From contig CAXXIA010000002.1 of NCBI GenBank assembly GCA_963666985.2, positions 2,400,001 through 2,464,000 on the forward strand: DNA of 64,000 nucleotides, written 5' to 3'. A program made the translations under genes and the position numbers. Below the pieces are notes generated by a model that worked only from the letters and a program-made list of their open reading frames with translations, searched no databases and was not told the origin of the DNA. The stretch is from Spirochaetia bacterium. Its GTDB lineage: Bacteria > Spirochaetota > Spirochaetia > DSM-2461. Positions 10,209-59,440 of this stretch are shown piece after piece; within the stretch, counting starts at the first letter, position 1; the number at the start of each line of letters is the position of its first letter.

Positions 10209-10260
10209 ATTCTCTCCTTAATTTTTTTGTTTTTATATTACATCCGATGGAACCGAAGGA

Positions 10261-10995
10261 TTATTCCATAGGCGCCTCCTTGCCGCGTTCCGCGGATTTG
10301 CTTTCATGCCGGAGCGATTCGATCAGGCGTTCCCGGTGTCTGTCGATTTGTGATTTCATCTCGCTCAGAGCCGTCTCCCTCTCGCCCCGGTTCATGGCGT
10401 CCCACATGCGCCAATGAGAGGCCACGCTGTCTTCGGCGACCTTTTCGAAATCTGTTTTTTTGTCCATGCGCCGCATAACATCGATGTGGAACCTGGTTTG
10501 GGATATCAGCATCGGAATCCAGGAATTGCCGCAATTCCGATGAATGAGTTCGTGAATTCGGTAATCGCTTTTATGAAAAGCGTCGATATCGCCGTGTTTA
10601 TAATCACCTTCCGAACGGCGGATGGACGCGGCGATTTCTTCGAGAATTTCCGGCCGGCGGCGCGTCATGAAGAGATCAAGCGCAAGAACTTCGAGATTTT
10701 CGCGGATCGTTATGGTCTCTTCGACATCTTTAATGGAAATGCTGGGAATGTAGTAACCGTGCCATTGGCGTTTTTCGAGAATCCGGATGAATACAAGCTG
10801 GCCGAAGGCCTCGCGGACACTGTTCCGGCTGACTCCGAGTTCCGAGGCGATCATCATGTCCTCGACCTTTTCACCGGCTTCCCAGCGGCCCGAGAGTATT
10901 TGGCCCTTCAGGTATTCCGCGACGGCCTGAGAACGGCTGGTCCTTCCGAATCGGGCATCGGGGACGATGGTGTCCCGGCGGTCAATAAGGTCCAT
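10261..10995 (-). CDS. GntR/FCD transcriptional regulator
   Basis: IASELGVSRNSVREA HTH and D..IHELI FCD; start set to ATG 10995, overlapping the fucI stop. Confidence 0.9.
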   Translation of the reverse strand: MDLIDRRDTIVPDARFGRTSRSQAVAEYLKGQILSGRWEAGEKVEDMMIASELGVSRNSVREAFGQLVFIRILEKRQWHGYYIPSISIKDVEETITIRENLEVLALDLFMTRRRPEILEEIAASIRRSEGDYKHGDIDAFHKSDYRIHELIHRNCGNSWIPMLISQTRFHIDVMRRMDKKTDFEKVAEDSVASHWRMWDAMNRGERETALSEMKSQIDRHRERLIESLRHESKSAERGKEAPME

Positions 10996-12769
10996 ACAAA
11001 GGGCCCAGCGCCCGGCAGGCCAGGTGGTCGGAGGCGATCGAATCGACATTCCCGAGATGATCCCAAAAAGTCGGACGGAAAACGCGTTCTTCCGGAACGT
11101 TGTGCATGGACACGGGGATGCGCAGCAGGGACGCCAGAGTCATCAAATCGTCTCCTCTGTGTCCGAAGCAGAGCACCGCATGATTACTGTTCCAGTGTTT
11201 CATTACGGCGTAAACGTCTCGAAACGGTCCTTTCCCGGTTATCCGCGGAGCGAAGAATGTTTTTGGCCAGGTTGGGTCGGTCCGTCCGACCGCGCTTGCG
11301 TAGAGTTCGGAAGGAAGATCCAGACTCCATCCCTCGGCGAGCTGCAGAACAGGGCCGACTCCTTTGACGATATTGATGCGGAGCATGGTGAAGGGCAGGC
11401 CGCCCCGAGTCGTAAACGCGGAACTGAATCCGCCGCCCCTGAAAGTCCAAAGCTTGGCCGCTCCCCATTGAGCATCTTCAAGGCAGGCCTTTGCATCGTT
11501 TTCCGTGAAGTCCCAGAACGGCACCATCCCATGTTCATCCCCGCGAACCGCCGCGCAGCTTCCGTCGAGCGCGGCCGATCCTGAGTTCGTTAGATAAATA
11601 AATCCGTTATTCAGCGGCGATGATGAATCCGGCTCATATCCGGAGATTCTTTCAATGGAGCACGGGCTCCAGTAGGTGCGGACATCGGCGAAAATGGGCG
11701 AGGTTCCCGTCAGAAGATTTGTAAAAAGCATCCCGACGGCGTTCAGATGATCGTTTTCCGTTGCAACGATGTATTGGGGACGAATTCCGTTCCAGTCGAA
11801 AGGACTGTTGAGGACGGCTTCGGCCACATCGGCTGTTATGTGAAAATCCGTCCATTGCCGCTGCCCCTGGAATCCCGCGGCCAAGGCGTATTTCCCGTCG
11901 CTTTCCTCCCGGAATCCGGAATCGGCCAGTTTTTCGTTTCCGGCCATCAAATCTTTAATAATGAGCGCTATCTTCAGGGAATCGGTCCAGTCCGATTTCT
12001 TATCGTGTTCCGAGCGGCGCTTGCCCTCGGCGTTCGGATCATTCATTTCCTTAAAATGGTTCATAGCCCAGGCTTCGGCCTTCTCGAGTTCCTTCGTATC
12101 GAGAATGCCTCTTTCCATCCGCCGCTGCATTTCACTCATATCCACGTATTCGTAACGCATGCCCAGATAGGCTCTGAGGAAGGAATCATCAACCTTGGAA
12201 CTGGCGATTCCCATGCTGACGCCGCCGATGGACAGATAGGCGGTATCCCGCATGGCATCAGCGGCCGCCGAAGCGCGGACGAAGCGGAGAATCTCTCCGG
12301 CCACATCGTCCGGCACACTATCATCGCCGATATCCTGAATGTCCCGGCCGTAGATTTTGAAAATGGGAACGCCGATCTGATCGTGAGCGGACGTCAAGGC
12401 CGCCAGGTAGACGGCGCCCGGACGTTCGGTGCCGTTGAAGCCCCAAACCGCATGCGGAACAAGCGGATCCTGGTCCATTGTTTCAAAGGGATAGCACCAG
12501 CTCGGCGTTACCGTGATGGTGCAGCAGACGCCTTCCTTTCGGAAACGGCGATCGACGGCCGCGGCCTCGCGGTTGCCTCCGATTGTATTCTCGGGAACGA
12601 TGCATCGAACGAAAGAACCGTCGGCCGCTCGGAGCGTTGCGCTGATTAATTCGGCCAGGCTGCGGGCCAGGGAAAGCGTTTTTCCTTCCAGGGCCTCGCG
12701 CACGCCGTTTCGTCTGGCATCGATGGTAGGTCTTATTCCTACAACGGCGGGTCTGCGGGCGGGATTCAT
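10982..12769 (-). CDS. fucI: L-fucose/D-arabinose isomerase family protein
   Basis: GIRPTIDARRNGVRE, WCY..ETMD, GFNGTERPGAVYLAA, FQGQRQWTD, ATEND, FADVRTYWSP. Confidence 0.93.
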   Translation of the reverse strand: MNPARRPAVVGIRPTIDARRNGVREALEGKTLSLARSLAELISATLRAADGSFVRCIVPENTIGGNREAAAVDRRFRKEGVCCTITVTPSWCYPFETMDQDPLVPHAVWGFNGTERPGAVYLAALTSAHDQIGVPIFKIYGRDIQDIGDDSVPDDVAGEILRFVRASAAADAMRDTAYLSIGGVSMGIASSKVDDSFLRAYLGMRYEYVDMSEMQRRMERGILDTKELEKAEAWAMNHFKEMNDPNAEGKRRSEHDKKSDWTDSLKIALIIKDLMAGNEKLADSGFREESDGKYALAAGFQGQRQWTDFHITADVAEAVLNSPFDWNGIRPQYIVATENDHLNAVGMLFTNLLTGTSPIFADVRTYWSPCSIERISGYEPDSSSPLNNGFIYLTNSGSAALDGSCAAVRGDEHGMVPFWDFTENDAKACLEDAQWGAAKLWTFRGGGFSSAFTTRGGLPFTMLRINIVKGVGPVLQLAEGWSLDLPSELYASAVGRTDPTWPKTFFAPRITGKGPFRDVYAVMKHWNSNHAVLCFGHRGDDLMTLASLLRIPVSMHNVPEERVFRPTFWDHLGNVDSIASDHLACRALGPLYGPY

Positions 12770-13626
12770 TTCGAACCGCCTTCGGCGGCTTGATAGCCCG
12801 GAATGTTTTGCTGAAGCCAGCGGAGGCTTCTGAGTGCGGCCGCATCCGGATCGACGGTGTAGGAGAATCCCAGCTCTACCGTTAAGGCTCCTTTGTATCC
12901 GCTGTCCGCGAGGTTTGCGAGGAAGGGATTGAAATCGATTCGACCTTCTCCGGGAACCAGATGATCGTCCGTTGTTCCCAGATTATCATCAATGTGATAA
13001 TGCACCGGGCATTCCGATAAAAGGCTGGGAATCGCGGAAAGAGGTTCCCTGTTGATGCTGCAGTGGCCGGTATCCACGACAAGACCGATATCGGGAGTTC
13101 CTTCCATGTCGCGGAACAGCCTGAACGCGTCGTCCACCGTGGCGACAAGGTCGGTCTCCCAGCGGTTGGCCGGTTCCAGCATGATTGTCGGTGAATCGGA
13201 TTCGGCATTGCCCGCGAACCGTACGAGTTCGTTCAGGCTTTTTATCAGGGCTTCCCATGAAACCTCCCAGCCGAGATCAACATGGCAGAATCCGGGGCAA
13301 ACGCTGACATAAGGAGCGTTTACGGCCGCGGCGGCTTCAAAGTTCCGTTTGATATAGTCGACGCTTTTTAGTCTCATCTCCTCAATGGGAGAGGCGAGGT
13401 TGGTGGGATAGCGAAACTGAGCCGGAATCCAGGCGGAAACCGTAAGCCCGGTTTCCTTCAGCGTGTCATTGAGTTCCGCCAGTGTCTTTGTATTCATATC
13501 TTCCCAATAGGCGTGAGGGCGGCCGCCCCATATCTCGACTTGGTCGTACCCCATTTTCGCGTACCGTCTGACGGCTTCATTGAGCGAGAACCGATAATGG
13601 ACAAAGGATGATATGCTCGTTTTCAT
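12766..13626 (-). CDS. ketose 3-epimerase, FrlC-like TIM barrel
   Basis: EIWGGRPHAY N-terminus as in FrlC; metal motifs LEP..RWE, DTGH, HIDD, DHLVPGEG, TVEL. Confidence 0.8.
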   Translation of the reverse strand: MKTSISSFVHYRFSLNEAVRRYAKMGYDQVEIWGGRPHAYWEDMNTKTLAELNDTLKETGLTVSAWIPAQFRYPTNLASPIEEMRLKSVDYIKRNFEAAAAVNAPYVSVCPGFCHVDLGWEVSWEALIKSLNELVRFAGNAESDSPTIMLEPANRWETDLVATVDDAFRLFRDMEGTPDIGLVVDTGHCSINREPLSAIPSLLSECPVHYHIDDNLGTTDDHLVPGEGRIDFNPFLANLADSGYKGALTVELGFSYTVDPDAAALRSLRWLQQNIPGYQAAEGGSK

Positions 13627-13793
13627 GGGCTCCAGGATAAATGAGAATTGTTTAAACTACAAATTTAAAATTTAAAGTTTAGATATTTTTAACATTAATC
13701 TAACAAATTATCGACAGCTCATGGTTTTGAGGCGATTAAATCAAAAATCTTAACCCATGGACGCTTGTTCAGGTCGTGATTATCCTATGAGTC

Positions 13794-14477
13794 ATGAATG
13801 AAAGCCCTTCGATTATTCCGTTCGCCAAGTCGAGTCGGGGAGAAACGATATCGGATTACGTTAAGGAATGCATTATCAACGGGCTCTGGAAACCCGGTGA
13901 GCGTATCGACGATCAGGAACTTGCGAAGCAGATCGGCGTAAGCCGATTGACGGTACGGGAAGCTCTTTCCCGGCTTGTGGAGAACAGAGTACTCACTCAA
14001 GTTCATTGGCGCGGATTTTATGTTCGAACACTTTCCTGGGAGGAAATCGTCTCCATCGTTGAAATGCGGGAAATGCTTGAAGTCCTGGCTTTGGAAAAAT
14101 TCATGAAGAATGTCGACGACCGCTTACTCAAAGAACTTGAGAAATCGATAACCACTTCGGCCAAGGATTTGGAATCCGACGACCGCGAAGGCTTTTTTAC
14201 CAGTGATTTTCGATTTCATGAGGTTCTCTATATGAACTCGGGGAATGAGTGGGTTATCCATTTCTCCAAGCAGATTATGTTTTTTATCGATTTGCTGAGA
14301 ATTATGGACAAAAAGACGAATTTTCATGAAATCGCGGAAGCCAGCGTCGTGGAACATACGGCTCTTTATAAAGTGATCTGCAGCGGAGATTTGATTCAAG
14401 CCGTCGAGATGATGCGGGAACATATCGCACGATTCCTGGAGAGGCTTAGGACTTCATACGAAACCGCGGCGCAGTGA
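13794..14477 (+). CDS. GntR/FCD transcriptional regulator
   Basis: LAKQIGVSRLTVREAL HTH, DFRFHEVL. Confidence 0.93.
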   Translation: MNESPSIIPFAKSSRGETISDYVKECIINGLWKPGERIDDQELAKQIGVSRLTVREALSRLVENRVLTQVHWRGFYVRTLSWEEIVSIVEMREMLEVLALEKFMKNVDDRLLKELEKSITTSAKDLESDDREGFFTSDFRFHEVLYMNSGNEWVIHFSKQIMFFIDLLRIMDKKTNFHEIAEASVVEHTALYKVICSGDLIQAVEMMREHIARFLERLRTSYETAAQ

Positions 14478-14554
14478 TGTTTTTTTAGAGAACCGGGTGT
14501 GCGTGCGGGAACAGCCTCAAACAGCTTTCGGGCAAGAGGCGGCCTTAAAGGTTT

Positions 14555-15238
14555 TCACAAACCGGATTCTTCCATTATCCAGCCGTTGCGCTGGGCCAGC
14601 AGCGCCGCTTGGGTTCTGTCCCGCAAGTCGAGCGCCGCGAGAATCCCCGAGATGTAATTTTTAACGGTTCCTTCCGAGAGACAGACCTCGTCGGCGATTT
14701 CCCGATTGGTATCGCCTCGGGCCAGGCATTTCAGGATATCCCGTTCCTTGCCGCTTAAACCGTCCCAAAGGGCCTGATGTTCGGGAGTTACGGAAGGCCC
14801 GGATTGTCCGATACCGGAATCCAGACGTTCGGCCATGATTCCCAGAATCCCCGGCGCCATAACGCCGGAGCCTCCCATGGCCACACGGACGGCCTTGGCC
14901 AATTCGTCGGTGGGAATGTCTTTCATCAGATAACCCACGGCCCCGGCCTTCAAGGATTTAACAACGTATTCTTCATCATCGAATGTGGTGAGCATCACCA
15001 CTTTTATTTCCGGCATTTCTTCTTTAAGACGTTCGGCGGCCGCGATACCGTCCAGAACGGGCATGCGGATGTCCATAAGAACCAGATCCGGCCGGAGCTG
15101 TCTTGCATACATTACGGCCTCCCGGCCGTTTTCCGCCGTTTCGATCACCTCGATGCCTTCCTGCAGGGCTAGAAGCGAAGCAATCCCTTCCCGAACCAAT
15201 CTCTGATCGTCCACGACGAGAACCCGGATATCCTTCAT
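14555..15238 (-). CDS. NarL/LuxR-family response regulator
   Basis: VVDD, LMDIRMP, LTTFD; HTH TNREIA...LSEGTVKNY. Confidence 0.96.
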   Translation of the reverse strand: MKDIRVLVVDDQRLVREGIASLLALQEGIEVIETAENGREAVMYARQLRPDLVLMDIRMPVLDGIAAAERLKEEMPEIKVVMLTTFDDEEYVVKSLKAGAVGYLMKDIPTDELAKAVRVAMGGSGVMAPGILGIMAERLDSGIGQSGPSVTPEHQALWDGLSGKERDILKCLARGDTNREIADEVCLSEGTVKNYISGILAALDLRDRTQAALLAQRNGWIMEESGL

Positions 15239-15241
15239 TGT

Positions 15242-16537
15242 TCAATCCCGGCCTATAAGGGCCACCGGATCTCGGGGTGCCACGGCGCATAGGCTCGTTC
15301 CCTCTCCCGGTTTGGAAGCAATCGTCATCACTCCCCGAACCAGTTCCAGCCGTCCGCGGAGACCGCGAAGTCCGTATCCGCTTTGTTTTTTTTCGGAGTC
15401 TTCCTCGGGAACGGAGAATCCGATACCGTCATCGGTGAGTTCCACCCGCGCCTCCGTAGGTCCCAATTCCACGATCAGCGAAGCCTTGGAGGCTTCGGCA
15501 TGCTTCAAAATGTTGGTAACGCCTTCCTGAACGAAACGAAAAAGTCCCATTAATACCGAATAATTATAACCGTCTTCGCTGCCCGTGTATCGATATTCCA
15601 CTTGAAGGCCGCCGTCTTCCAGGAGTTTTACCAGACGGGGCAGACCTGTTGCCAGTGAAACGGCGGCATCCACACCGTTGATGCGTCCGAGAGATTCACG
15701 GATATCTTTCATGGCGTCTTCGGCGGTTGTTCTGGCCGCCTTGACCGCCGTCATTGATTCATCCGCGTCGACATCGCGATAGGCCTCGGCCTTGGAAAGC
15801 TGGATTTTTATCGCCGTGAGCGCATGTCCCAGGCTGTCGTGAATATCCCTGGCCAATCGGGTCCGCTCTTCCAAGGCCACGGTATGCGCCACGCGATCGG
15901 CGTATTCCCGCAGCCGTGCTTCGGATGCCTTGAGCCGCTCCATGAGCCGCTTGTTTTCTTCGGATTTTTTTCTTTCGGCGGATAAAAGCCCGGCCAGGAC
16001 ATAGAAGAAGAGAATGGCGAGTGTTCTGTATGTCAGAAATCCCAGAACGTTGGTATCCCAATGAGAAGTATCTCTGGCGATGAATTCAAATCCTATGGGT
16101 ATGGCGAGAGATAGAATCAGGATGAAAAGGCTGAGACTTCGGGAAAAGGCGAAATGAGCATAAAAGGGAATAAGGCTTAAAAGCATAAAAGTCTGTGAAG
16201 GCATGGCGAACTGAATATATTTTGAGCCGACCGGACCGATGAACCGATTAACCAAAGGAAGTCCGATATAGGGTATGGCCAGAATCAGCAGCCGAAGGCC
16301 GAACAGCAGTCGGGAAAGAGCCGTATCCTTAAAATGATAGGAACGATGGGTATATTCAAAGATTTCCAGAGCCAGATAAAGAATACTTATTAAGAGGGTG
16401 AGAAAGAACATAATCGTATCGGCCCTTGAGGAAGAGAAATCTCTTCTTCGTGAGAAGAGAAATCCCGGAGCCATAAAGAGAAAATAGAGAAGAACCGTAA
16501 CGAGACGGATGGAGTCTTGAGTGTTTCGGCGATTCAC
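15242..16537 (-). CDS. HisKA_3 membrane sensor histidine kinase
   Basis: ERTRLARDIHDSLGH, QEGVTNILKHA, DDGIGF, GYGLRG; N-terminal TM segments. Confidence 0.95.
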   Translation of the reverse strand: MNRRNTQDSIRLVTVLLYFLFMAPGFLFSRRRDFSSSRADTIMFFLTLLISILYLALEIFEYTHRSYHFKDTALSRLLFGLRLLILAIPYIGLPLVNRFIGPVGSKYIQFAMPSQTFMLLSLIPFYAHFAFSRSLSLFILILSLAIPIGFEFIARDTSHWDTNVLGFLTYRTLAILFFYVLAGLLSAERKKSEENKRLMERLKASEARLREYADRVAHTVALEERTRLARDIHDSLGHALTAIKIQLSKAEAYRDVDADESMTAVKAARTTAEDAMKDIRESLGRINGVDAAVSLATGLPRLVKLLEDGGLQVEYRYTGSEDGYNYSVLMGLFRFVQEGVTNILKHAEASKASLIVELGPTEARVELTDDGIGFSVPEEDSEKKQSGYGLRGLRGRLELVRGVMTIASKPGEGTSLCAVAPRDPVALIGRD

Positions 16538-48245: not shown

Positions 48246-49334
48246 TTATGGCTCCGAAAGCGCCCATCCTTCCGCGGCTTCGCGAACGGCATCGAAAACG
48301 GCATAGCCTTCCTGAAATGTTCCGAGGCGTCCCTGCCGGGCCACGATGCCGAAGTAACCGTACTTTTTATTCCAGAACGGATAGGCGCCGTAAGCGCCGG
48401 GTGAAGAAACCTGAACGGCTTCATCCGGATTCCATCCGGGAGCGGGGCATTCAATCCACATCCCGTATCCGTAATGCCATTCTTCGCCGAGCCGTTCCCA
48501 TGCCGGTGAATATCCGATTGCGGCCGAATCCAGCCGGTCTCCGCTCGCCTGAGAAATCAGGGTTTTGTCCTTATAGAAGCTGCCGTTTTTAAAGGCCCGG
48601 ATGAAATCGATGTAGTCTCGGGCCGTCCAGATCATTCCGCCGGCCAGGCGAGGGTTTGCAGCGGAGGGAAGCCTGTAGTCCGAGTTGGGAAAAAGCCCGG
48701 TTTTCGTTCGGAAGGCGTTAAAGAGTTCCGTCCAATTATCGTAGCCTCCGGCGCGGACGGCCATGGCGCCGGCCACCTGGAGATGAGCCGATCCGTAATG
48801 GAATGAGGCTCCGGGTTCTCCGGGGTCAGCGGAAATACCGCCATTCCTTTGTGCAATGGCGGTGATGCATCTGAAAAAGTCACCCTCCGGATTGTTCAGA
48901 CAGGGTACCTCTTCATCGAGTCCGGAAGTGAAGCTCAGAAGCTGCGCCAGAGTGATCCCGCGAAGCGGATCGTTTTCATTCGTCGGCCATTCCCGTTTAG
49001 CAAAGTAATCCTCGGGAGAATCATCGAGAGCCATAAGGCCGTTATCCGCCAGGGTTAGGATAATCGCCGCGGTAACCCACTTGGAGGTGGATGCCGGCTT
49101 GTAGGGCGTATCGAGTCCGGCGTTCCCTCTGGTATAAAGGTATTGTTCGCCGGCCGCATCCTCCAGAAAAAAAAGGAAATCAACGCTGCTTGAAGCGGCC
49201 TCCAGTTCGGAGGTTAAAAGGAGCGCCCATTCCGTTTTGGACTCCGGTTCTATGGAATCCTGCTCGGCGGAACAGCATGATAGAGGGAAGAGCGCGGCCG
49301 TAAGAAGAATTATAAGAGCGTGGAAAGTGTTCAT
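48246..49334 (-). CDS. serine hydrolase, beta-lactamase/class C-like, probably a lipoprotein
   Basis: ASTSK (SxxK), ITLAQLLSFTSGL, PG..FHYG, YGYGMW, SPGAYG; LSCC lipobox; start at ATG 49334. Confidence 0.85.
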   Translation of the reverse strand: MNTFHALIILLTAALFPLSCCSAEQDSIEPESKTEWALLLTSELEAASSSVDFLFFLEDAAGEQYLYTRGNAGLDTPYKPASTSKWVTAAIILTLADNGLMALDDSPEDYFAKREWPTNENDPLRGITLAQLLSFTSGLDEEVPCLNNPEGDFFRCITAIAQRNGGISADPGEPGASFHYGSAHLQVAGAMAVRAGGYDNWTELFNAFRTKTGLFPNSDYRLPSAANPRLAGGMIWTARDYIDFIRAFKNGSFYKDKTLISQASGDRLDSAAIGYSPAWERLGEEWHYGYGMWIECPAPGWNPDEAVQVSSPGAYGAYPFWNKKYGYFGIVARQGRLGTFQEGYAVFDAVREAAEGWALSEP

Positions 49335-49465
49335 TTCGCTCCCTTCCGGATTCTTTTTTTGTAAACGGGCGCCGGCCTCGCCTTGAACAGGTTTTCTAAG
49401 CCGCCTTTTTAGGAAATTGTATCGCGAAATAACCGATTCGGCCAAATTCAGCAGTCCTGGCGATT

Positions 49466-49530
49466 GACAGAATAGGACAGAAGATGACAATTAAAGACAG
49501 AGAGGTTCCATCCGGTACAATATAGGACGA
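49466..49530 (+). repeat. GACA(G/A) direct repeats phased at 10 bp upstream of the HTH-EIIA gene
   Basis: GACAG 49466, GACAG 49476, GACAA 49486, GACAG 49496; degenerate TACAA 49516 and GACGA 49526. Confidence 0.7.
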
Positions 49531-49558
49531 TAAGGACTTGACGGGGGAAGTAAAGACC

Positions 49559-50272
49559 ATGGATTACCAGCGAACGGCGTTGTCGATAGCCGATGTGGCG
49601 AAAATCCTTCAGGTTTCGGAAAAAACCGTTACGAGAATGCTTCGCGACGGAGCGATACCGGGATTCAAAGTAGCGAATCAATGGCGTTTTCATCCGGACG
49701 ATTTCGAAAAGTGGCTCAATTCCAAACGAGGGACGAATGACGATTCATCGGAACTCTCCTCCGTTGACGGTCTGGGTTATGAGCCGCTGCCGTTATCAAG
49801 GCTGACCGCGGAAGATCTCATTCTTCCGAACCTTTCCGCCGGATCGAAGCGGGAGGTTCTTTCCGCGCTGGTTAAACCACTGGCCGCCCGCGGTGTCGTT
49901 GAGGATAAGGAGGCCTTTGTCGAAGGTCTCTGGGCAAGAGAAAAAATGGTTACGACCGGTATCGGCGGAAGAGTGGCCCTGCCACATTTGAGAAATCCGG
50001 AGGACCAGCCGATTGAGCGCCCCCTTATGGTTATAGGCGTATCGAAAAAGGGTATCGATTGGTCGTCCATCGATAATCTCCCGGTACATCTTTTCCTGAT
50101 GCCGATTACCGGAAACGAAGTGCTTCATGTCAGAACACTTTTCGCGATTCGCCGAGCTCTGGCGGTTGAGGATTTTGTCGACAAAATTATCGCCGCAAAG
50201 TCGCGATCCGAAGTTTTATCCATTTTACTTATGGTTGAGACTCTGCAGATGAATCGAACGGAACTTACCTGA
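49559..50272 (+). CDS. excisionase-like HTH fused to a PTS EIIA domain
   Basis: LSIADVAKILQVSEKTV....G.IPGFKV..QWRF; AREK..TTGIG..VALPH. Confidence 0.9.
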   Translation: MDYQRTALSIADVAKILQVSEKTVTRMLRDGAIPGFKVANQWRFHPDDFEKWLNSKRGTNDDSSELSSVDGLGYEPLPLSRLTAEDLILPNLSAGSKREVLSALVKPLAARGVVEDKEAFVEGLWAREKMVTTGIGGRVALPHLRNPEDQPIERPLMVIGVSKKGIDWSSIDNLPVHLFLMPITGNEVLHVRTLFAIRRALAVEDFVDKIIAAKSRSEVLSILLMVETLQMNRTELT

Positions 50273-50287
50273 AAGGAGATATGTGTA

Positions 50288-50743
50288 ATGGAAATTCATG
50301 ATGTGATATCGGCCGACCGATGCCGGGTTTTGCATAGCCGAACGAAGACCGAAGCATTGTTGGAACTTATTGAAATCGTCGGCGAGGAGAATTCCGTCGC
50401 CGATTTGGAGGCTCTGAAGAAGGAAATCTTCTATAGGGAACAAATCATGAGCACGGGAATCGGTCAGGGGATAGGAATCCCCCATGTTCGTTTTCCCGGG
50501 ATGAAGGAACCGATTGTTCTTGTCGGAGTGAGTCCGAAAGGTCTTGAAGATTATGAATCCTTGGACGGAGAGATTGTCAAACTGGTTTTTATGATTCTCG
50601 TTGATGAAAATCATCATAAGGAATACTTAAGAATCCTTTCGCTTATTGTTCAGCGCTTGAAGGATGATGGTTTTCGAAAAGGCCTCTTCGGCGCTGAGAC
50701 GGATAAAGCCGTATTCGAATTGCTTACAGGCGGAGAAAAATGA
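50288..50743 (+). CDS. PTS EIIA (Ntr/Fru-type) protein
   Basis: REQIMSTGIGQGIGIPH, SLDGEIVKLVF. Confidence 0.93.
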   Translation: MEIHDVISADRCRVLHSRTKTEALLELIEIVGEENSVADLEALKKEIFYREQIMSTGIGQGIGIPHVRFPGMKEPIVLVGVSPKGLEDYESLDGEIVKLVFMILVDENHHKEYLRILSLIVQRLKDDGFRKGLFGAETDKAVFELLTGGEK

Positions 50744-52437
50744 ACGGTATACTTTCTTTCTTTTCATCACATGTGAGTCTGGAGCATATCAATGCCCTTT
50801 TGGTTCTCGGTGTTGTTCTTTTCGGAGGAACATGGGCCGGGCGTTTGTTTCAGACTTGGAAAATTCCTCAAGTGGTTGGATACATCACTCTCGGCGTTCT
50901 CTTGGGGCGAACCGGTTTGGGCTGGATTGACGCGGATACCCTGAAAAACCTTCAGCCCTTCAGTACCTTCGCCCTCGGCTTAATCGGATTCATGATAGGC
51001 GGAGAGCTGAAGATTCAAACCATTAAAAAATACGGCAGACAGTTCACCACCATTCTTCTTTTTGAATCTCTGGGGGCGTTTGTTATCGTTTCAATTCTTA
51101 TCGGAACGGCCGGCTGGTTCTTTTTCAAGAATGCCGCGTTTGCGATTTCATTGGGACTTCTTATGGGTTCCATATCATCGGCCACCGCTCCGGCCGCAAC
51201 AACGGATGTGCTTTGGGAGAATAAAACCAAAGGACCTCTGACAACGATAGTCCTGGGAATTGTCGCTTTGGATGATGCCGTTGCTCTGCTTCTTTTCGCC
51301 GTTTCTTCGAGTGTCGCGGGAATCCTCCTGGGCGGAGGCGCCGATCATAGTCTTCTTCCCAGTCTTCTGAATCTCATTTGGGAAATAGGAATCGCGGTGG
51401 TTTTAGGGGTTGGCATGGGATTCATCCATTACCGGAGTATTCGAAGCTTCGCCGATGAAAACAGAATATTGGCCTTTTCCATCGGTGCCATAGTCCTTCT
51501 GATCGGAATAGCGAATTTCCTTGATGTGGATGTCATTCTGGCGGCTATGAGCATGGGATTTTTTACCATTAATTTCGCTCCGCGGCGCAGCAAGGAAACG
51601 TTTAAGTTCGTAGAGCGTTTTACTCCGCCGGTATATGTTTTGTTTTTTGTCATGGTCGGAGCCAAGCTTAACGTAAGGGGGCTTTCGGCGATTACTTTGT
51701 TTATGGCGGGAATCTACCTAATCGGAAGAATCGCCGGTAAGTCCGTCGGGGCGATTCTCGGTGCTCTTGTATCGAAGGCTCCCGGATCGGTTCGCCGGTA
51801 TCTTCCCTTCTGTCTTTTAAGTCAGGCCGGCGTGGCCATCGGATTGTCCATTATCGCGGGGCAGGCTTTCGTCGGGACTCTCGGGGATACGATTGTCATG
51901 ATTATCACGGCCACCACGTTCATCGTGCAGCTCGCCGGCCCTCCTTTGGTAAAGATAGCCGCGCTGAAGGCCGGAGAGGTCGGTCTGAATATTACCGAAG
52001 AAGATCTTATCCGCCGGAGCCGAGCCAAAGATATCGCCGACAAGGACATTCCCTCCATTCCCGAAAACATGGATATCGGTTCGGTTGTGAAAATCTTCGC
52101 CGAGCACGACAATCTTTATTATCCGGTTGTGAATGACGAGGGTGTTCTTATGGGAATCCTGCCCATCGAGACATTGAAAGATACATTTCTTCTCTCCGAT
52201 CTTTCTCCGCTTTTATTGGCGCACGACATTATGGAACGAGCCGAATTCACATGCCGTGAAGAGACCGAGGCAACGGAGATAACGGATATTTTCAGGCAGA
52301 GAGGGGTTGCGTCGATCCCCGTTCTCGACGGAGAAGGACGAGTTACGGGAATGATTGAGTTTCGGCGCATGCAGCAGCACTTTGCCAGGCAGCTGGCGGC
52401 GCTTCGGGAAAAAGCGACGGCTTTGGAGGCGAACTGA
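50740..52437 (+). CDS. cation:proton antiporter (CPA2-like) with C-terminal CBS pair
   Basis: IPQVVGY..GVLLG, ATAPAAT, IVALDD, FFVMVGA, QAGVAIG; CBS YPVV...G / IPVLD...G. Confidence 0.92.
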   Translation: MNGILSFFSSHVSLEHINALLVLGVVLFGGTWAGRLFQTWKIPQVVGYITLGVLLGRTGLGWIDADTLKNLQPFSTFALGLIGFMIGGELKIQTIKKYGRQFTTILLFESLGAFVIVSILIGTAGWFFFKNAAFAISLGLLMGSISSATAPAATTDVLWENKTKGPLTTIVLGIVALDDAVALLLFAVSSSVAGILLGGGADHSLLPSLLNLIWEIGIAVVLGVGMGFIHYRSIRSFADENRILAFSIGAIVLLIGIANFLDVDVILAAMSMGFFTINFAPRRSKETFKFVERFTPPVYVLFFVMVGAKLNVRGLSAITLFMAGIYLIGRIAGKSVGAILGALVSKAPGSVRRYLPFCLLSQAGVAIGLSIIAGQAFVGTLGDTIVMIITATTFIVQLAGPPLVKIAALKAGEVGLNITEEDLIRRSRAKDIADKDIPSIPENMDIGSVVKIFAEHDNLYYPVVNDEGVLMGILPIETLKDTFLLSDLSPLLLAHDIMERAEFTCREETEATEITDIFRQRGVASIPVLDGEGRVTGMIEFRRMQQHFARQLAALREKATALEAN

Positions 52438-52438
52438 A

Positions 52439-53332
52439 ATGAAATTCGGATCGTTGGTGGATAAGGAATGCATCATAATCGGGAATGGCTTCAAGAGCAT
52501 TGACGAAGCTATCGATGGTTTAATTGAGCTTTTTTTCCGAAGAAAAAAGCTTCCTATGAATCCGGAGGAAGTCAGCCGAATTGTTCGAAATCGGGAACAG
52601 CTCGGCGGAACGGTTTTGCCGTCGGGGCTCGCCATTCCGCATGGCCGTATCGAGGGTTTTCACGATCTTTTAATCGGTATTTGGATTCCGGAATCTCCTC
52701 TTGAGACCGATCACGGCACGGTCCGGTTTCTTGTTTTTTCTTTAACTTCAAAATCCGGAACCGCTCTCTATTTGCCGATGCTTGCTGCCTTGGCCAGGTT
52801 TTCGCAGAACGAAGAGGCCATGGGACATTTCCTTTCGGTTCGGGATAAGCATGAAGCGCATCGGATTCTCGACGATATTATCCTGAAGCAGGAAATAACG
52901 GTTGAGGACATCATGACCCGAGAACCGGTAACTTGTAAGCCCGAAGCGACGGTGGCCGAATTGGCCGATATTTTTTATCAAAAGAATCTCAGCTATCTGC
53001 CGGTCGTGGATGGAAAAGGGACTCAGATTGGAGAGGTGACGATAAAGGATCTTATTTCCCGCGGAATCCCCGATTATGTCCGGCGGCTGGCGAATACCCG
53101 TTTTCTGAAAACTCTGGAGCCTTTTGAAGCTTTGCTGAAGGAAGAGGATAAAATCCAGGTGAAAGAAATCATGAGAAAGCCGTCGCGAAAGGTTACTCCG
53201 GATGCGTCGATTATCGAAGCCGCCACCCTTATGACCAATCACGGATTCAGGCATCTGCCGGTTCTGGAGAAAGGGAAAGTCATCGGTATCGTCAGTGAAA
53301 CGGACATCCTGAAGAAAGTCATCAGGGGGTAG
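52439..53332 (+). CDS. PTS EIIA + CBS domain protein
   Basis: RE..GGT....LAIPHGR; VEDIMT..P, LPVVD, RHLPV...GIVSETDIL; start at ATG 52439 (GGAGG RBS). Confidence 0.88.
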   Translation: MKFGSLVDKECIIIGNGFKSIDEAIDGLIELFFRRKKLPMNPEEVSRIVRNREQLGGTVLPSGLAIPHGRIEGFHDLLIGIWIPESPLETDHGTVRFLVFSLTSKSGTALYLPMLAALARFSQNEEAMGHFLSVRDKHEAHRILDDIILKQEITVEDIMTREPVTCKPEATVAELADIFYQKNLSYLPVVDGKGTQIGEVTIKDLISRGIPDYVRRLANTRFLKTLEPFEALLKEEDKIQVKEIMRKPSRKVTPDASIIEAATLMTNHGFRHLPVLEKGKVIGIVSETDILKKVIRG

Positions 53333-53335
53333 ACC

Positions 53336-54610
53336 ATGGTTCAAATCATTATCGGTGTAGCCTTCTTTATCCTGCTCTTCATTCTCATCTCTTTGGAAGT
53401 GGTTAATAAGACCATTCTTGCCATCCTCGGCGCCGTTCTGTTTATTTCCATGGGAATCCTCGATCAGTCCGAGGCCTTTAAAGATGTGGACTGGGATGTC
53501 ATTTTTCTTCTAATCGGCATGATGGTGATTGTCGGTGTAACGAAGCGTTCCGGGCTGTATCAATACATCGCCATAAAATCGGCCAAGGCGGTCGGCGGCG
53601 ATCCGGTGAAGATTCTTATTCTTTTTTCATTGATAACCGCAGTAATGTCCGCGTTTTTGGATAATGTCACTACCGTTCTTATTCTCACACCCGTGATGAT
53701 TTTAATTGCCGTTGAGCTGGGTTTGAGTCCCGTACCGTTCATTATCAGCTCCGCTTTGGCATCCAATATAGGAGGAACGGCCACTCTTATCGGCGATCCT
53801 CCCAACATCATGATTGGCAGCGCCGCCGGACTCGGTTTTACGGATTTTCTTATAAACCTTGGTCCGCTTATTCTGATTCTCCTGGTTATTCACTGCGGTA
53901 TGATTTTTCTCTTTTTCCGGAAGGATATGAATGTGAGCATGGAACGGCGCGCCCGAATTATGGAATTCGACGAGAGCGCGAGTCTCTCCGATCGCGCTAT
54001 TCTTGTAAAAAGCCTTTCGGTTTTGCTTCTTGTTATTGTCGGTTTTCTTCTCCATGGCGTAACGAATATCGAGCCGGCAACAATCGCTCTCGGAGGTGCC
54101 GCGCTTCTTATGCTTCTTGTCGGCGGAGAAGAAGTAGACGGTTATTTTCATGAAGTTGAATGGGAAACCATCTTTTTCTTCTTCGGTCTTTTCATCATGG
54201 TGGGCGGTTTGGTGGAACTGGGAGTTATCGATAAACTGGCGGCGGCCTATCTGAAACTTACCGGAGGGAATATCGAGAAGACGTCTTTTTCCCTTATATG
54301 GGTAAGCGGTCTTCTCTCGTCGTTCCTTGACAATATTCCTTATGTCGCGACGATGATTCCCTTGGTAAAGAGCATGGGAACCGAGATCGGCGCTTCGGCG
54401 ATAACACCCATTTGGTGGTCTCTGGCCATTGGATCCTGCCTGGGCGGCAACGGAACTCTTATCGGCGCTTCGGCCAATGTCGTGAGTTCCGGAATCAGCG
54501 GCAGGAGCGGATATAAAATCAGCTTTCTGGAGTTTACTAAATACGGTTTTATCTCCATGGTGATTTCTTTGGCGGTATCAAGCGTGTACATTTTTGTTGT
54601 TTTCCTCTGA
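53336..54610 (+). CDS. ArsB/NhaD (IT superfamily) transporter
   Basis: SAFLDNVTTV, SNIGGTATLIGDPPN, DNIPY, LGGNGTLIGASAN. Confidence 0.93.
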   Translation: MVQIIIGVAFFILLFILISLEVVNKTILAILGAVLFISMGILDQSEAFKDVDWDVIFLLIGMMVIVGVTKRSGLYQYIAIKSAKAVGGDPVKILILFSLITAVMSAFLDNVTTVLILTPVMILIAVELGLSPVPFIISSALASNIGGTATLIGDPPNIMIGSAAGLGFTDFLINLGPLILILLVIHCGMIFLFFRKDMNVSMERRARIMEFDESASLSDRAILVKSLSVLLLVIVGFLLHGVTNIEPATIALGGAALLMLLVGGEEVDGYFHEVEWETIFFFFGLFIMVGGLVELGVIDKLAAAYLKLTGGNIEKTSFSLIWVSGLLSSFLDNIPYVATMIPLVKSMGTEIGASAITPIWWSLAIGSCLGGNGTLIGASANVVSSGISGRSGYKISFLEFTKYGFISMVISLAVSSVYIFVVFL

Positions 54611-54986
54611 AGCCGGCATGATTTCAGACGGAATCCGAAGCTCTCATCGAGACTGATCTCTTCTGATTTTTCCTTTTTTTTCTTTCTTTACCCACCCGAT
54701 GGAGTCGTTTTTTCGGTAAGAAATTCATTTTTCTTGCCGAAAGGCGCTGAAGGAAAAGGAATCTATAAATAAACAAAAGATATCTCTTTGTAAAAAGGGA
54801 ATATTATAACTCACAAATATATCACAAATTAAATAAAACATAGAAAAAATTGAATTTAATATTAATTAATAACGAATTTATTCTGCTCTAATTATTATTG
54901 CGGCTTTAACTTCCATTAAGAAAAAGTGCTTGATTTCCGCGTTATTACACGTCGATGATATTTATGGAATGGGAGAGTTTTATGTC

Positions 54987-57142
54987 ATGAAGGATGTTGA
55001 AATCATTGCCGATACCGAGGACTCGGATTTTCTAAGAATTTTAGAGAATATTGAAGCCTTTGAAGAAGGCGATTTGCTTGGCTTAACCGCGATTAATGAA
55101 TTGATAAGAAAACTCTCTGAAAACAATGTAGATAATTTGGTGGGAAAAATATCGGAAATTATTATGCCCTGTTTTCAGGGGCTTGGAGTCATAGATTCTC
55201 AGAAGACATTCCTTAATGAAGTAAAAAGGGTGCTGAACTCGGCAAAAAAAATAAAATAAGCATTGAAGAAGCGGCGAATGTTCTTTCAAAATATTTTGCC
55301 CAAGAAGAATCTCCCGGTAATTGTAAAGCGGAAGAAGACACGGAACTCATTGTTACCGAAGAATGGTTTGAAGGCCTGATTCAGGATGAGGAAATGTTCC
55401 GAAAATTTGTTTCGGAAATTAGCGAACATTTGGAGAATGTTCAGTTGGCTCTTCTGGAACTGGAATATGATTCGGCGAATAAGGAAAACATCAACACGAT
55501 TTTCCGTGCCTTTCATACGATAAAAAGTTCTTCCGCATTCCTGGGCGTTAAAAACCTTGAAGAAACGGCCCATTACATTGAGAACATGCTGGCATTGGTT
55601 CGTGACGGAGAAATCCAAGTATCTCCGGAACTTGTGGATATCGTGTTTTACAGTGTCGGATTTGTTAAAGATCTGGCCGAGGTTTTTGAACGGGCTCAGT
55701 ATAAAAACGAAACCATAATTAAAAGTTTTCTCGGAATCGACATTCGTCCGATAATTCGCGTTATTAGAAAAATCACCACCGAAAGGCGAACGAAAAAAAT
55801 CGGAGAAATCCTCACCGAACTGGGCAAAATCGATGACGATAAGATTCAGGAAATTCTCGGACGGCAGAAGAAAGAGAATCGGCGCTTCGGAGAGATTGCC
55901 CTGGAAGAGAAGGTCGTGGCCGAGGAAGATATCGCCGCCGCCGTTCAGGTTCAGACGAGTCAAAAGAATAAATTTTCCTATGTGAAAGTCGCCTCCGCCC
56001 GACTGAATGATTTGGTTGATATGGTCGGAGAATTGGTTGTGAATCAGTCCATGATTCGTGAGGAAGTCGTCTCCGGTATACAGGTTCAGGAACGGGAACT
56101 TCGTCAGCTGAATCTGATTACAACAAACATTAAGAACATTGTTCTCTCGATGGGTATGGTGCCTATCGAAGAGGTGTTCAACAAGCTTCGCGTTGTCATC
56201 AGGAACGCCTCGCGTGAAACCGGAAAAATCGTTGAAACGGTTATCAGCGGAGAAGATACGGAACTGGATCGAAATCTCATTGAAGCGATTCACGATCCTC
56301 TGGTGCATATGGTGCGCAACGCGGTGGATCACGGATTGGAAGAAACCGCCGAGCGGGAGGCCTTGGGGAAGAAGCCCGTCGGCTTAATCAATATTTCGGC
56401 GGAACATAAGGGCAACGGCATTCAAGTCACCGTTCGTGATGATGGTAAGGGTATTGATCGAGAACGGATTGTTGAGAAAGCCGTAGAAAAGGAACTGATT
56501 AAGAAAGACGAAGCCCCGCGCTATCTGGCCGATGAAAAACTCTGCTACGAGCTGATGTTCAGCCCCGGATTTTCAACGGCCAAGAAGGTCACCGAACTTT
56601 CCGGCCGGGGAGTCGGTTTGGACGTTGTGAAGATGAATCTGGATAAGATTCATGGAAAAATTGAAGTTTTTTCCGAGAAAGGTCAGGGAACGTCGTTCAT
56701 AATCAAACTTCCCTTAACTCTTGCCATAATCGACGGCTTTGTAACGAGAGTCTGCGAAGAACGCTATATTTTCTCTTTCAATTTAATCAAAGGAATTATC
56801 GTTCCGACGGAAGAGAATGTACGAAAAATGGAGGATGGAGAAATAATCCTCTATGATCGCGGACGGCATATTCCCATTATTTTTACCGAAGAACTCGTTA
56901 CGGGGAATCCGGTTAATAAGCGGCCTGGTGAATACATTATTTTGCTTATTAATTACGAGGATTCACTTTATGGGATAGCCGTGGATGAGGTTTTGGGAAA
57001 GCAGGAAATTGTCATAAAAAGTCTTAATGAAGTTCTTCGGGAAATGAATCTTTTTTCCGGCGGAACGATTTTCGGAGACGGAACCATCGGCTTTGTGGTT
57101 GATATCGATGAATTTATTCGGAAAGCCCAATCGGATTACTAA
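54987..57142 (+). pseudogene. cheA: cheA copy 1, frameshifted at the A8 run 55244-55251
   Basis: The upstream ORF is homologous to the N-terminus of cheA copy 2 (IE.FEEGDLLGL, IIMPCFQ.LGV..SQK). One extra A joins it to 55394..57142 (FHTIKSS HPT, HMVRNAVDHG, GRGVGLDVV, CheW domain). Confidence 0.88.
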
Positions 57143-57685
57143 ATATTAGAAAAGGAGGGAAGAATGATAATGATCGTGGACGACTCGGCGATAGGCCGTG
57201 ACGTTATTAAAAAGGCTTTATCAATGAACGGTTATAAGGAAGTTCTTGAGGCCGAAAACGGTGCGGTGGGATTGGAAAAATCCAAAGCGAATCAAGGTGC
57301 GATTAAGTTGTATATCCTGGATATCAACATGCCGGTCATGGACGGACTGACCCTCCTGGAAGAGATTCGGAAATACGACACGGCGACTCCGGTGATTATG
57401 CTCACCACGGAAACGGATAAAGCAAAAATGGCACACGCGAAAAGTCTCGGTGCAACGGGTTGGATGATCAAACCGTTCAACGAAGAACAGTTAATGAACG
57501 TCATCAGAATGGTAGTGAAGGAGTAGGGCATGGCGAATAAAAAATCAATGGGTTTGTCGTTTAAGATCATTGGGATGGTGGTGATTCTTTTCTTGATTGT
57601 ATTGGGACTGATTACCATTTTGGTCAGTAAAAGAATCAACGATGGAATCAGTGAAGTTCAAATATCCAATATGGAACAATCCGCT
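55340..57685 (+). repeat. copy 1 of the duplicated cheA-cheY-mcp(5') segment; copy 2 about 6260 bp downstream
   Basis: Long identical tracts; for example the lines at 55501 and 61761, and at 57001 and 63261, match. Confidence 0.95.
57164..57526 (+). CDS. cheY: CheY-like receiver protein
   Basis: IVDDS, LDINMP..DG, MLTTE, KPF. Confidence 0.93.
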   Translation: MIMIVDDSAIGRDVIKKALSMNGYKEVLEAENGAVGLEKSKANQGAIKLYILDINMPVMDGLTLLEEIRKYDTATPVIMLTTETDKAKMAHAKSLGATGWMIKPFNEEQLMNVIRMVVKE

Positions 57686-59440
57686 CAGCAGTATCAGAGT
57701 CTGCTGGATGAGGTTTTTCTGAATCTGGGAAGAAGGGTTCAACTGGTTGCTCAGAAAAATGAAGTGATTCAGGCGTATAATGAGAACGATGAGGATTCTC
57801 TCCAATCGCTCAGCAGGGCAAGTTATGAATCTGTAGAGAATTCCTATGAAGCTTTTTTCACGGATAGTAATGGAGAAATCCTTTCCAGTTATCCAAATAA
57901 GGAGCGTATTGGTTTGGATATTGCCGATAGTGATTTCTGGGAGCCGGTATCATCACTGCATAAAACTTCATTTATTTCTTCGTATATTTATAAAAATGAA
58001 AAAGGAGTTTATGTCTTATCTTTTGCTTCTCCGGTCGTGATTAACAATCGTTTTTCCGGAATATTCGTAGTGGAACTGGATATGCAGAGTTTTGCGGATC
58101 AATACATCAATCCTTCCAAATATGGTGAATCCGGATACGCTTTCATTTTTGATGATAAGGGAACTTTAGCGGCTCATCGTACGGAAATGGGCGCTAATAT
58201 ATCTGGGGAGGCTTGGTTCCAGAAGATCGTTAAATCATCCGAAAAGTCAGGCATTGAGTATTATGAAAAAGACGGTCGGATGAAGTACCAGTTCTTTCAT
58301 CAATTATCCTCTTTGCCCTGGTATGTTTCCGCAAGTATTGATGAAAATGATTTATTAAGCCTTTCCATCCAAATGCGCAATCAAATCATTATAATCAGTG
58401 CCGTATCTCTTGCCGTTTTGGTTGTGATTTTAATATTGGCTATTATGCTCCTGGTCGGCCGGCCGATATCGAGAATAACCAACGACCTTTCTTCCGGATC
58501 AAATAATCTGGAATCCGCATCTTATCAGATATCCTCATCAAGCCAGGAGCTTTCCAGCGGATCTTCCGAGCTGGCTTCGAGCATTGAAGAAATCACCTCG
58601 TCCCTTGAAGAGCTTCAGTCCGTGGTGGAAATGAACACCAAAAATATCAATCAAAGCGAATTGATGATGAAGGAAACCACGGAAGGAACGGAAAAGGTGA
58701 CTCAGCGTATGGGGGAACTGAAATCCGCCGTAAATGAGATAGGGGAGAACAGCAAGAAGATCGTAAAGATCATCAAAGTGATTGAAGACATTGCCTTCCA
58801 GACGAATATTCTGGCGCTGAATGCGGCGGTGGAAGCGGCACGGGCCGGCGATGCCGGTCGGGGCTTCGCCGTTGTGGCCGATCAGGTAAAGGAGTTGGCT
58901 CATAAGAGTTCCGAGGCGGCAAAAGAAACAGCGGTATTGATTGAGAAAGCATCGGAGAGTGCCGACAGAGGAGAAAGCCTTGGCGGTGAGGTAATGGAAG
59001 TTCAGGCAAGCGCCGGGGAAATGGCCGCGAAGGTCGGGGTTCTTCTCGATGAGGTGAATCGGGCTTCCAAGGAGCAGATGAAAGGAATCAATCAGATTAC
59101 ACAGGCCATTACCCAGACCAATTCGGTTGTGCAGCAGACGGCCGCCAGTGCCGAGGAAACGGCGGCTGCCAGCGAAGAGCTTTTGAGTCAGGCCGAAGGC
59201 CTTAATGACGTCGTCGATCGATTGAACATTATCGTGAAGGGCCGTTCGGATAATGCCACAACGACCAAGAGGTCCGCTTCCGAGGGAACAAAGACCGTAC
59301 GGACGGAGAACGGCGAATCCGCGGTGAGAACGAAAATTTTAAAAACACCGAAAGCGGATCTTCGCTCTGAGGAATCGGGAATCAGTTTGGCTTCTGCGGA
59401 AGAGCAGATTCCGCTTGAAGAAGAATTCAGCGAGTTCTAG
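57530..59440 (+). CDS. methyl-accepting chemotaxis protein (dCache-like sensor)
   Basis: Two TM segments, [28 protein letters not shown]. Confidence 0.95.

Follow-up and report, generated by a model that had tools for sequence, protein, structure and literature searches.

A five-gene spirochaete operon with three EIIA domains, two CBS pairs and two predicted transporters

What could three EIIA domains of the phosphotransferase system (PTS) be doing in an operon that also encodes two predicted transporters? The question is raised by a 64,000-nucleotide stretch of DNA (the window) from a Spirochaetia bacterium (assembly GCA_963666985.2, contig CAXXIA010000002.1, positions 2,400,001 to 2,464,000 of the forward strand), in which five plus-strand open reading frames (ORFs), here called g1 to g5, follow each other with nearly no spacing at 49559-54610 of the window. 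The gap between g1 and g2 is 15 nt, g2 and g3 overlap by 4 nt, and 1 nt and 3 nt separate g3 from g4 and g4 from g5. Judged from gene order, the operon is a lineage-specific join of an (HTH-EIIA)-EIIA-antiporter cassette, with HTH standing for helix-turn-helix and the antiporter being of the cation/proton antiporter (CPA) type, and an EIIA-CBS-transporter cassette. The three Ntr-type EIIA domains are likely to be phosphorylated via EI and HPr and then to set transcription and transporter activity according to phosphoenolpyruvate (PEP) and energy state, a reading to which we give a probability of roughly 60%.

Domain content and active-site residues

The five genes had been described in an earlier note, made from the letters of this DNA, as HTH-EIIA, EIIA, antiporter-CBS, EIIA-CBS and transporter, with two CBS pairs and no EIIB or EIIC gene. 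The Pfam scan confirmed this order, found two CBS stretches in each of g3 and g4, and detected no EIIB or EIIC domain in the five genes. The first gene, g1 (49559..50272, +, 237 aa), joins an HTH_17 (excisionase/MerR-like) DNA-binding domain (4.6e-15, residues 15-63 of the longer TTG frame) to an Ntr/fructose-type EIIA (PTS_EIIA_2, 5e-30). Both models of the DNA-binding part passed their cut-offs (HTH_17, 56.1 bits vs 27; TIGR01764 excise domain, 37.7 vs 28.8). A GGGGGAAG string lies a few bases upstream of its ATG at 49559, and the alignment with its homologues begins at residue 7-8. The second gene, g2 (50288..50743, +, 151 aa), encodes a stand-alone EIIA (PTS_EIIA_2, 5.6e-26).

The product of g3 (50740..52437, +, 565 aa) is a cation/proton antiporter of the Na_H_Exchanger family (1.7e-29) with a C-terminal CBS pair (two stretches, 4.6e-16). 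It passed the broad model PF00999 (103.3 bits vs 26.2) but neither TIGR00932 for CPA2 (49 vs 238.3) nor NF003716 for K+/H+ antiporters (47.5 vs 355), so that the scores assign it to no subfamily. It carries the string ALDDAV, whose DD pair we take to mark electrogenic CPA2-type antiporters. The fourth gene, g4 (52439..53332, +, 297 aa), encodes an EIIA (1.3e-15) fused to a CBS pair (two stretches, 1.2e-33). Its longest frame begins within g3, but all 29 of 29 aligned homologues begin at the Met of ATG 52439, one base past the g3 stop, and 52439-53332 is therefore the most likely extent; the EIIA-CBS identity of the note stood.

The last gene, g5 (53336..54610, +, 424 aa), encodes a permease of the ion-transporter superfamily, like CitMHS, ArsB, NhaD and DASS proteins. 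Its Pfam matches were CitMHS (1.1e-92), ArsB (7.5e-18), Na_sulph_symp and, weakly, NhaB, and NCBIfam NhaD_1 matched at 1.1e-08. Only the broad CitMHS model was passed (311 vs 31.9), and the named NCBIfam models all scored under their cut-offs (MamN, 207.8/500, 2.4e-61; DASS, 110.2/198.6; ArsB, 105.9/457; NhaD_1, 34.5/80), so that the substrate class cannot be read from the scores. The nearest solved structures were VcINDY (5.5e-22) and an ArsB structure (3.9e-14), with SLC13 proteins also near. The earlier note had called g5 an NhaD/ArsB transporter; its scores fall below the curated cut-offs of MamN, ArsB, NhaD and DASS.

All three EIIA domains passed the PF00359 gathering cut-off of 27 bits (g1, 104.8; g2, 91.7; g4, 58.1), and their translations contain the motifs ALPH (g1), GIPH (g2) and AIPH (g4). 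The His of each motif shares a column with the His of 'aiPH' in the E. coli and Burkholderia PtsN proteins; when g2 was aligned by HMMER with solved PtsN structures (1a6j, 3urr, 4gqx), 'gigiPHvr' stood opposite 'giaiPHgk' and 'gvaiPHgr'. We take the His of this PH motif (His73 in E. coli IIA-Ntr) to be the residue that is phosphorylated. The earlier claim that all three domains keep the phospho-His thus agrees with the alignments. The residue (His68 in g4) was invariant in 8/8 EIIA domains aligned from the same genome, including the EIIA of its sole sugar-PTS locus and the HTH-EIIA paralogue of this genome, and in 30/30 EIIA-CBS proteins, and it was kept in 25/25 HTH-EIIA proteins extracted from other genomes.

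The second active-site His, which presumably corresponds to His111 of IIA-Mtl and His120 of E. coli IIA-Ntr, is present in g1 and replaced by Tyr in g2 and g4. The Tyr of g4 (Tyr111) was invariant in 30/30 EIIA-CBS proteins, and the HTH-EIIA family has His in 19/25 and Tyr in 6/25 at this position. In IIA-Mtl the second His matters for onward transfer to EIIB. Provided that this role holds, loss of the second His may fit a terminal, regulatory phosphate acceptor. By sequence, the nearest solved relatives of the g2 and g4 EIIA parts were PtsN proteins (for g2: 4gqx, 1a6j and 3urr).

Recurrence of the parts in other genomes

The EIIA-CBS protein and its transporter partner form the conserved core of the operon. 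A search for EIIA-CBS proteins gave 82 protein clusters; of the named ones, nearly all come from Spirochaetota. A first sample consisted of 19 genome loci found with a 15-sequence alignment of EIIA-CBS proteins, 18 of which were bacterial and full length. The result showed that a g5-like gene begins no more than about 60 nt after the g4 homologue in 15/18 loci, the three exceptions being in two Cloacimonadota metagenome-assembled genomes (MAGs) and one Calditrichota MAG. In the Calditrichota locus (L020, 164-9545), the EIIA-CBS homologue has no g5-type partner; its gene comes after three Proton_antipo_M (Mrp-type) genes and a DUF502 gene, near an Na_Ca_ex gene. The second sample, which may share genomes with the first, was drawn from 301 Spirochaetota genomes at E ≤ 1e-25, of which 25 had a match, the source genome counted. 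Among its 28 loci in 24 other genomes, 25 have an adjoining same-strand g5-like gene (24 downstream and 1 upstream), the exceptions being L101, L114 and L115; no g1-, g2- or g3-like gene was found within the 1.5-kb flanks of any of the 28.

The flanks of the g4-g5 pair vary from locus to locus and include genes for a methyl-accepting chemotaxis protein (MCP), a tRNA synthetase, PAP2, a histidine kinase and PfkB. In the closer pairs, g5 is better conserved than g4 (53-66% vs 34-45% identity). At one locus (L068), EIIA and CBS pair are encoded by two genes of their own before the same type of transporter, with an HTH-EIIA gene ahead of them, and at another (L015) an HTH-EIIA gene stands directly before g4-g5. 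All four genes g2-g3-g4-g5 occur together in L003, L006 and L008 (3/18), which are the loci with the closest g4 relatives.

An AlphaFold2 model of g4, built from a 30-sequence alignment, had a mean predicted local distance difference test (pLDDT) value of 91.8 and a predicted template modelling score (pTM) of 0.79. In Foldseek searches against the Protein Data Bank (PDB), its N-terminal half matched PtsN (3urr; target-normalised score TMt, 0.84; root-mean-square deviation, 2.2) and its C-terminal half matched CBS pairs, among them AcuB with AMP and ADP; among the PDB matches listed, no chain covered both halves (best query-normalised score TMq, 0.45). Each g4 CBS domain contains one string (GEVTIKD and GIVSETD) resembling G-h-h-S/T-x-x-D, presumably the ribose-phosphate motif of CBS domains. 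The sequence that links the two domains (GIPDY...N..FLKTLEPFE.LL) ranks with the best-conserved parts of the family and is a candidate contact surface. A complex prediction for g4 and g5, run without controls, scored 0.02 vs a mark of 0.32, which speaks neither for nor against binding.

Full-length g3 homologues occur in Spirochaetota. Matches to g3 (E ≤ 1e-30) were obtained in 77/301 genomes, some of them being CPA-only paralogues. The best 29 CPA-CBS loci from other genomes include four (L030, L033, L035 and L058) with a g2-like EIIA gene immediately upstream, and in two of these (L033 and L058) a g1-like gene precedes it.

Matches to g1 (E ≤ 1e-12) were more widespread (204/301 genomes), many of them covering the EIIA part only, but full-length HTH-EIIA relatives were also found widely. 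The best 29 g1-like loci in other genomes were examined for their neighbours, and 17 of them adjoin an ion-transport gene. The commonest arrangement, in 8/29 (L060-L067), is an HTH-EIIA gene followed by a 276-aa protein consisting of EIIA and a further part, and then by a CPA antiporter; for L065 and L066 the antiporter is known from the g3 genome search and not from the flank scan of the g1 loci. Three more loci have the HTH-EIIA gene adjoining CPA-CBS genes (L072, L079 and L081), and in another three it lies directly upstream of a Proton_antipo_M gene (L076, L082 and L084). Single loci have it with the EIIA, CBS-pair and CitMHS-type genes of L068, with a CPA antiporter of the type found at locus L022 of the source genome (L069), or with an EIIA gene and a CPA gene further on (L071). 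At L076 (1-3669, -), another spirochaete genome has three genes in a row, which encode a fusion of DUF1275 with EIIA, an HTH_17-EIIA protein and an Mrp/NDH-like subunit of the Proton_antipo_M family. The idea that HTH-EIIA genes of Treponema-like genomes also head V-type ATPase operons was rejected, no V-type ATPase subunit being matched in L060-L088.

PTS genes of the genome and DNA around the operon

The source genome (4.86 Mb in 3 contigs, 93% complete) encodes 11 PTS_EIIA_2 domains. It has one PTS_IIB match and one weak PTS_EIIC match (5.6e-5, under the cut-off), both on contig C1, which is not the contig of the operon; EIIC-GAT and EII-Sor gave no match genome-wide in this 93% complete assembly, other EIIC families not having been searched. 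The sole sugar-PTS locus (L024, contig C1) encodes IIB, IIC, two EIIA, a GH38 mannosidase, HPr and EI. All nine remaining EIIA domains are fused to or lie beside non-PTS transport genes: three in the present operon, two in a V-type ATPase operon, two beside other CPA antiporters and two in amino-acid permeases. At L022, a 150-aa EIIA gene overlaps the start of a second gene for a 565-aa Na_H_Exchanger protein. At L025 (3638-5790, +), the gene for a 441-aa Na_H_Exchanger protein precedes that for a 276-aa protein, which begins with an EIIA domain and ends in about 130 residues without Pfam match, the type of protein that recurs between HTH-EIIA and antiporter genes at L060-L067. The two permease fusions (L026, 5139-6974, -; L027, 3702-5558, +) are AA_permease proteins with a C-terminal PTS_EIIA_2 domain. 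The L022 pair was considered as a recent duplicate of g2-g3 and rejected, the two pairs being only about 24-25% identical; they are thus old, separate pairs.

The V-type ATPase operon (L023, G000:C2:237500-257499, about 4988-15244, minus strand) encodes subunits C/AC39, I, A, B and D; the HTH_17-EIIA paralogue comes first in it, and a Usp protein and a stand-alone EIIA of 148 aa come last. This is a second ion-pump operon, with EIIA proteins at both ends.

The genes for a phosphorelay comprise two HPr, one HprK and three full-length EI (576, 584 and 581 aa). Each EI has the N-terminal, mobile and PEP-binding domains, and none has an extra N-terminal domain. An rpoN-hpf-hprK-HPr cluster lies at L028 (2600-5660, +), without a ptsN or other EIIA gene; it is followed by genes for a histidine kinase, a sigma-54 activator and LexA. 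A cluster of ptsH with rpoN in Spirochaetales is described in the available text of PMC2405797. The gene for the third EI (581 aa; L119, G000:C2:1936000-1944000) lies beside genes for a phage-type integrase and for the large subunit of a terminase, a setting that may be the border of a prophage remnant. The genome also encodes a diadenylate cyclase, which makes cyclic di-AMP (c-di-AMP) a possible ligand of the CBS pairs beside ATP, ADP and AMP.

Upstream of g1, a sigma-70-like promoter candidate (TTGACA-16-GACAAT, 49464..49491, +) has 10/12 matches. It is a candidate only, because the number of such sites in the region (6 found vs 7.0 expected in shuffled sequence) is at chance level; the promoter and terminator scans of the region as a whole were likewise at chance level. 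Overlapping it are four GACA motifs at exact 10-bp spacing (49466..49499, +; copies GACAG, GACAG, GACAA and GACAG), which may be an operator. This phased pattern occurs once in the 64-kb window, vs 0.01 times expected from shuffles. An Rfam scan of 48900-55500 (E ≤ 0.1) found no RNA family and thus detected no riboswitch or leader.

Other genes were noted on both sides. An AT-rich gap (about 36-42% GC) at 54611-54929 follows g5, and the stretch beyond it (54930-59440) contains an ORF of 109 aa with no Pfam match and then three long plus-strand ORFs (582, 120 and 636 aa), which by eye seem to encode CheA, CheY and a methyl-accepting protein. Upstream of the operon, the minus strand encodes a hydrolase of the beta-lactamase family and a DUF4139/DUF4140 protein.

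Proposed mechanism, known systems and rival explanations

The reading favoured here can be put as a sequence of predicted steps. The phosphate of PEP would reach the conserved His in g1, g2 and g4 by way of EI and HPr. In one phosphorylation state, g2 would bind the cytoplasmic CBS tail of g3 and inhibit or release antiport, a step modelled on the binding of unphosphorylated PtsN to the C-terminal region of YcgO. The g4 protein would act as a regulatory subunit of g5 with two inputs, namely phosphorylation of its EIIA His and binding of an adenine nucleotide (ATP, AMP or c-di-AMP) to its CBS pair. Depending on its phosphorylation, the g1 protein would bind close to the operon promoter, with the phased GACA repeats as a possible site, and so change transcription of the operon. 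The transported species would be monovalent cations against H+ for g3 and an unspecified ion or anion for g5. We infer the label 'ion homeostasis' from the neighbouring genes, and the sequence does not show whether control is by activation or by inhibition, or which phosphorylation state exerts it.

In proteobacteria, PTS-Ntr controls K+ homeostasis through TrkA and KdpD. The present system would resemble it as a permease-less PTS branch that links metabolic state to monovalent cation transport. Unlike it, the genome has no EI-Ntr with a GAF domain (its three EI proteins are 576-584 aa), it has HprK, and it has many specialised EIIA paralogues instead of one PtsN. For spirochaetes, Gonzalez and co-workers are said to have described in 2005 the EI, HPr, HprK and IIA-Ntr of Treponema denticola as a permease-poor regulatory PTS. 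The present genome agrees with the spirochaete regulatory PTS in having EI, HPr and HprK, in the link of an HPr to rpoN and in having few PTS permeases if any, but whereas targets apparently went unnamed in those papers, candidate targets here come from adjacency and fusions. A DNA-binding domain and a PTS-phosphorylated EIIA-type domain are combined in one polypeptide in MtlR and LicR, which are regulators containing PTS regulation domains (PRDs). The g1 protein likewise joins DNA-binding and EIIA-type domains; it differs in having no PRD or EIIB-like domain, in its length of 237 aa, in its HTH_17/excisionase-type HTH and in having ion-transport genes, not sugar genes, as neighbours.

The closest experimental precedent is the inhibition of YcgO (CvrA) by PtsN in E. 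coli: as far as the available text of PMC11808508 goes, unphosphorylated PtsN binds the cytoplasmic C-terminal region of this CPA1 K+/H+ antiporter and inhibits it, and phosphorylation weakens the binding. The g2 and g3 proteins have the same parts list, that is, an Ntr-type EIIA and an antiporter with a cytoplasmic C-terminal regulatory region. The differences are that g2 overlaps its presumed target gene whereas PtsN is encoded in the rpoN operon (the present operon lies outside a location of the rpoN-hpf-ptsN-rapZ-npr type, the rpoN-hpf-hprK-HPr cluster being elsewhere), that the g3 tail is a CBS pair and not RCK/CorC, that the g2-g3 interaction is a predicted one, and that g3 has the DD motif and is not a YcgO orthologue (NF003716, 47.5 vs 355).

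Control of LacS, LacY and MalK by fused or trans-acting EIIA, and control of OpuA, MgtE and CorB by CBS domains, are reviewed in the part of PMC10710835 available. As in LacS, or in EIIA-Glc acting on LacY and MalK, an EIIA fused to or binding a non-PTS transporter would tune its activity by the HPr/PTS state (PMC10710835); unlike there, the EIIA is of the fructose/Ntr type (PF00359) and not the Glc type, the transporter families are others, and a CBS pair and a DNA-binding fusion take part. Tandem CBS domains on or beside a transporter as a nucleotide switch are likewise known from OpuA (c-di-AMP), MgtE and CorB (ATP/Mg2+) according to the same text (PMC10710835). Here the CBS pair is fused to the transporter in g3 and lies on a separate subunit in g4, where, unlike in OpuA, MgtE and CorB, it is fused to an EIIA.

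Several observations weigh against phosphorylation-dependent control of ion transport by the operon as a whole. Tyr stands in g2 and g4 where g1 and most EIIA domains carry the second His, and g1, g2 and g4 all fall under the NCBIfam PtsN cut-offs (TIGR01419 and NF008145). The curated-family scores of g3 and g5 leave both substrates unassigned, and the CBS strings of g3, judged by the presumed ribose-phosphate motif, look less canonical than those of g4. The g2-g3 association is facultative, 25/29 of the best CPA-CBS loci having no EIIA gene in their flanks. Twelve of the best 29 HTH-EIIA loci have no transport gene within 1.5 kb, their neighbours being mostly genes without Pfam match or unrelated genes. 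Neither the HTH-EIIA paralogue nor the L015 homologue showed the phased GACA repeat in its upstream DNA.

An alternative centred on carbon uptake was weighed against these data. It holds that g5 imports an organic anion (a di- or tricarboxylate, DASS/CitMHS-like), that g4 is an inducer-exclusion-type brake set by PTS state, and that g3 recycles the coupling ion (Na+ or H+). The best Pfam match of g5 to CitMHS (1.1e-92) and the nearness of the dicarboxylate transporter VcINDY (5.5e-22) and SLC13 proteins among its structural relatives agree with it, as does the textbook control of non-PTS carbon uptake by EIIA (LacY, MalK and LacS; available text of PMC10710835). The curated models, by contrast, rank MamN first (2.4e-61), followed by DASS and ArsB, all under their cut-offs, and leave the substrate class unreadable. 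Moreover, no catabolic genes flank g4-g5 in the loci examined, where the neighbours vary, and orphan EIIA domains elsewhere in the genome accompany cation antiporters and the V-type ATPase. We regard carbon-uptake control as unlikely.

Somewhat less probable again is that the EIIA domains are phosphorylation-independent regulatory or scaffold modules, which bind a ligand or the transporters and keep the His for structure. The Tyr at the second His position of g2 and g4, invariant as Tyr111 in the EIIA-CBS proteins, would suit such modules, as would the distance of all three domains from the PtsN equivalog cut-off (TIGR01419: g1, 49.9; g2, 67.9; g4, 25.7 vs 138.7), and E. coli PtsN acts on YcgO when unphosphorylated (available text of PMC11808508). 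Set against this, divergent families keep the phospho-His, the Pro before it and the RE motif without variation, and three EI and two HPr are kept for a single sugar permease locus. That the five genes are functionally unrelated neighbours in an operon-like layout arisen by chance is highly improbable: the chance-level promoter and terminator scans and the absence of the full five-gene order from the other loci would be in keeping with it, but the gaps of 15, -4, 1 and 3 nt and the recurrence of sub-cassettes elsewhere argue the other way.

None of the other loci examined had all five genes in this order, and the sub-cassettes g4-g5, g2-g3, g1-g2-g3 and g2-g3-g4-g5 each recur in other genomes. 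The synteny survey proposed in the earlier note thus upheld the g4-g5 pairing (15/18 and 25/28) and not the full order. Its idea of a dedicated non-sugar PTS branch fared similarly. Dedication of EIIA proteins to transport genes is supported by the conserved g4-g5 pair, by the recurrence of HTH-EIIA and EIIA genes beside CPA antiporters, by the nine orphan EIIA domains with transport genes, by the presence of EI, HPr and HprK and by the PtsN-YcgO precedent (available text of PMC11808508), whereas the five genes as a single branch did not hold up, g2-g3 accompanying g4-g5 in only 3/18 loci of the first sample and 0/28 of the second. The Na+/K+/anion transport named in the note is a putative assignment.

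A wider generalization is possible, although we place it somewhat short of an even chance: in spirochaetes, the Ntr-type EIIA may serve as a general plug-in switch for ion transport. PRD-less HTH_17-EIIA factors would head antiporter, Mrp-like or V-type ATPase operons, stand-alone EIIA subunits would be dedicated to single CPA antiporters, and EIIA-CBS proteins would read phosphorylated HPr and adenine nucleotide and gate an elevator-type transporter of the ArsB/NhaD/CitMHS family. Regulation of cation transport by an Ntr-type EIIA is already known. Apparently new, as far as searched, are the dedicated EIIA paralogues adjacent to transporters, the tie of EIIA-CBS to an ArsB/NhaD/CitMHS-type transporter and the PRD-less HTH_17-EIIA proteins at ion-transport operons; no paper on the HTH_17-EIIA or EIIA-CBS architecture was found in the open-access literature and bioRxiv.

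To our knowledge, the targets of permease-less PTS branches are known mainly from proteobacteria (TrkA, KdpD and YcgO), and those of spirochaetes are largely unnamed. The adjacency and fusions of EIIA described here point to testable candidate targets, namely the CPA antiporter, the g5-type permease, the V-type ATPase operon and the amino-acid permeases. If the proposal is true, EIIA-CBS would offer a compact model of how one regulator joins phosphorelay and nucleotide signals, and the HTH_17-EIIA proteins would add a new kind to the transcription factors under PTS control.

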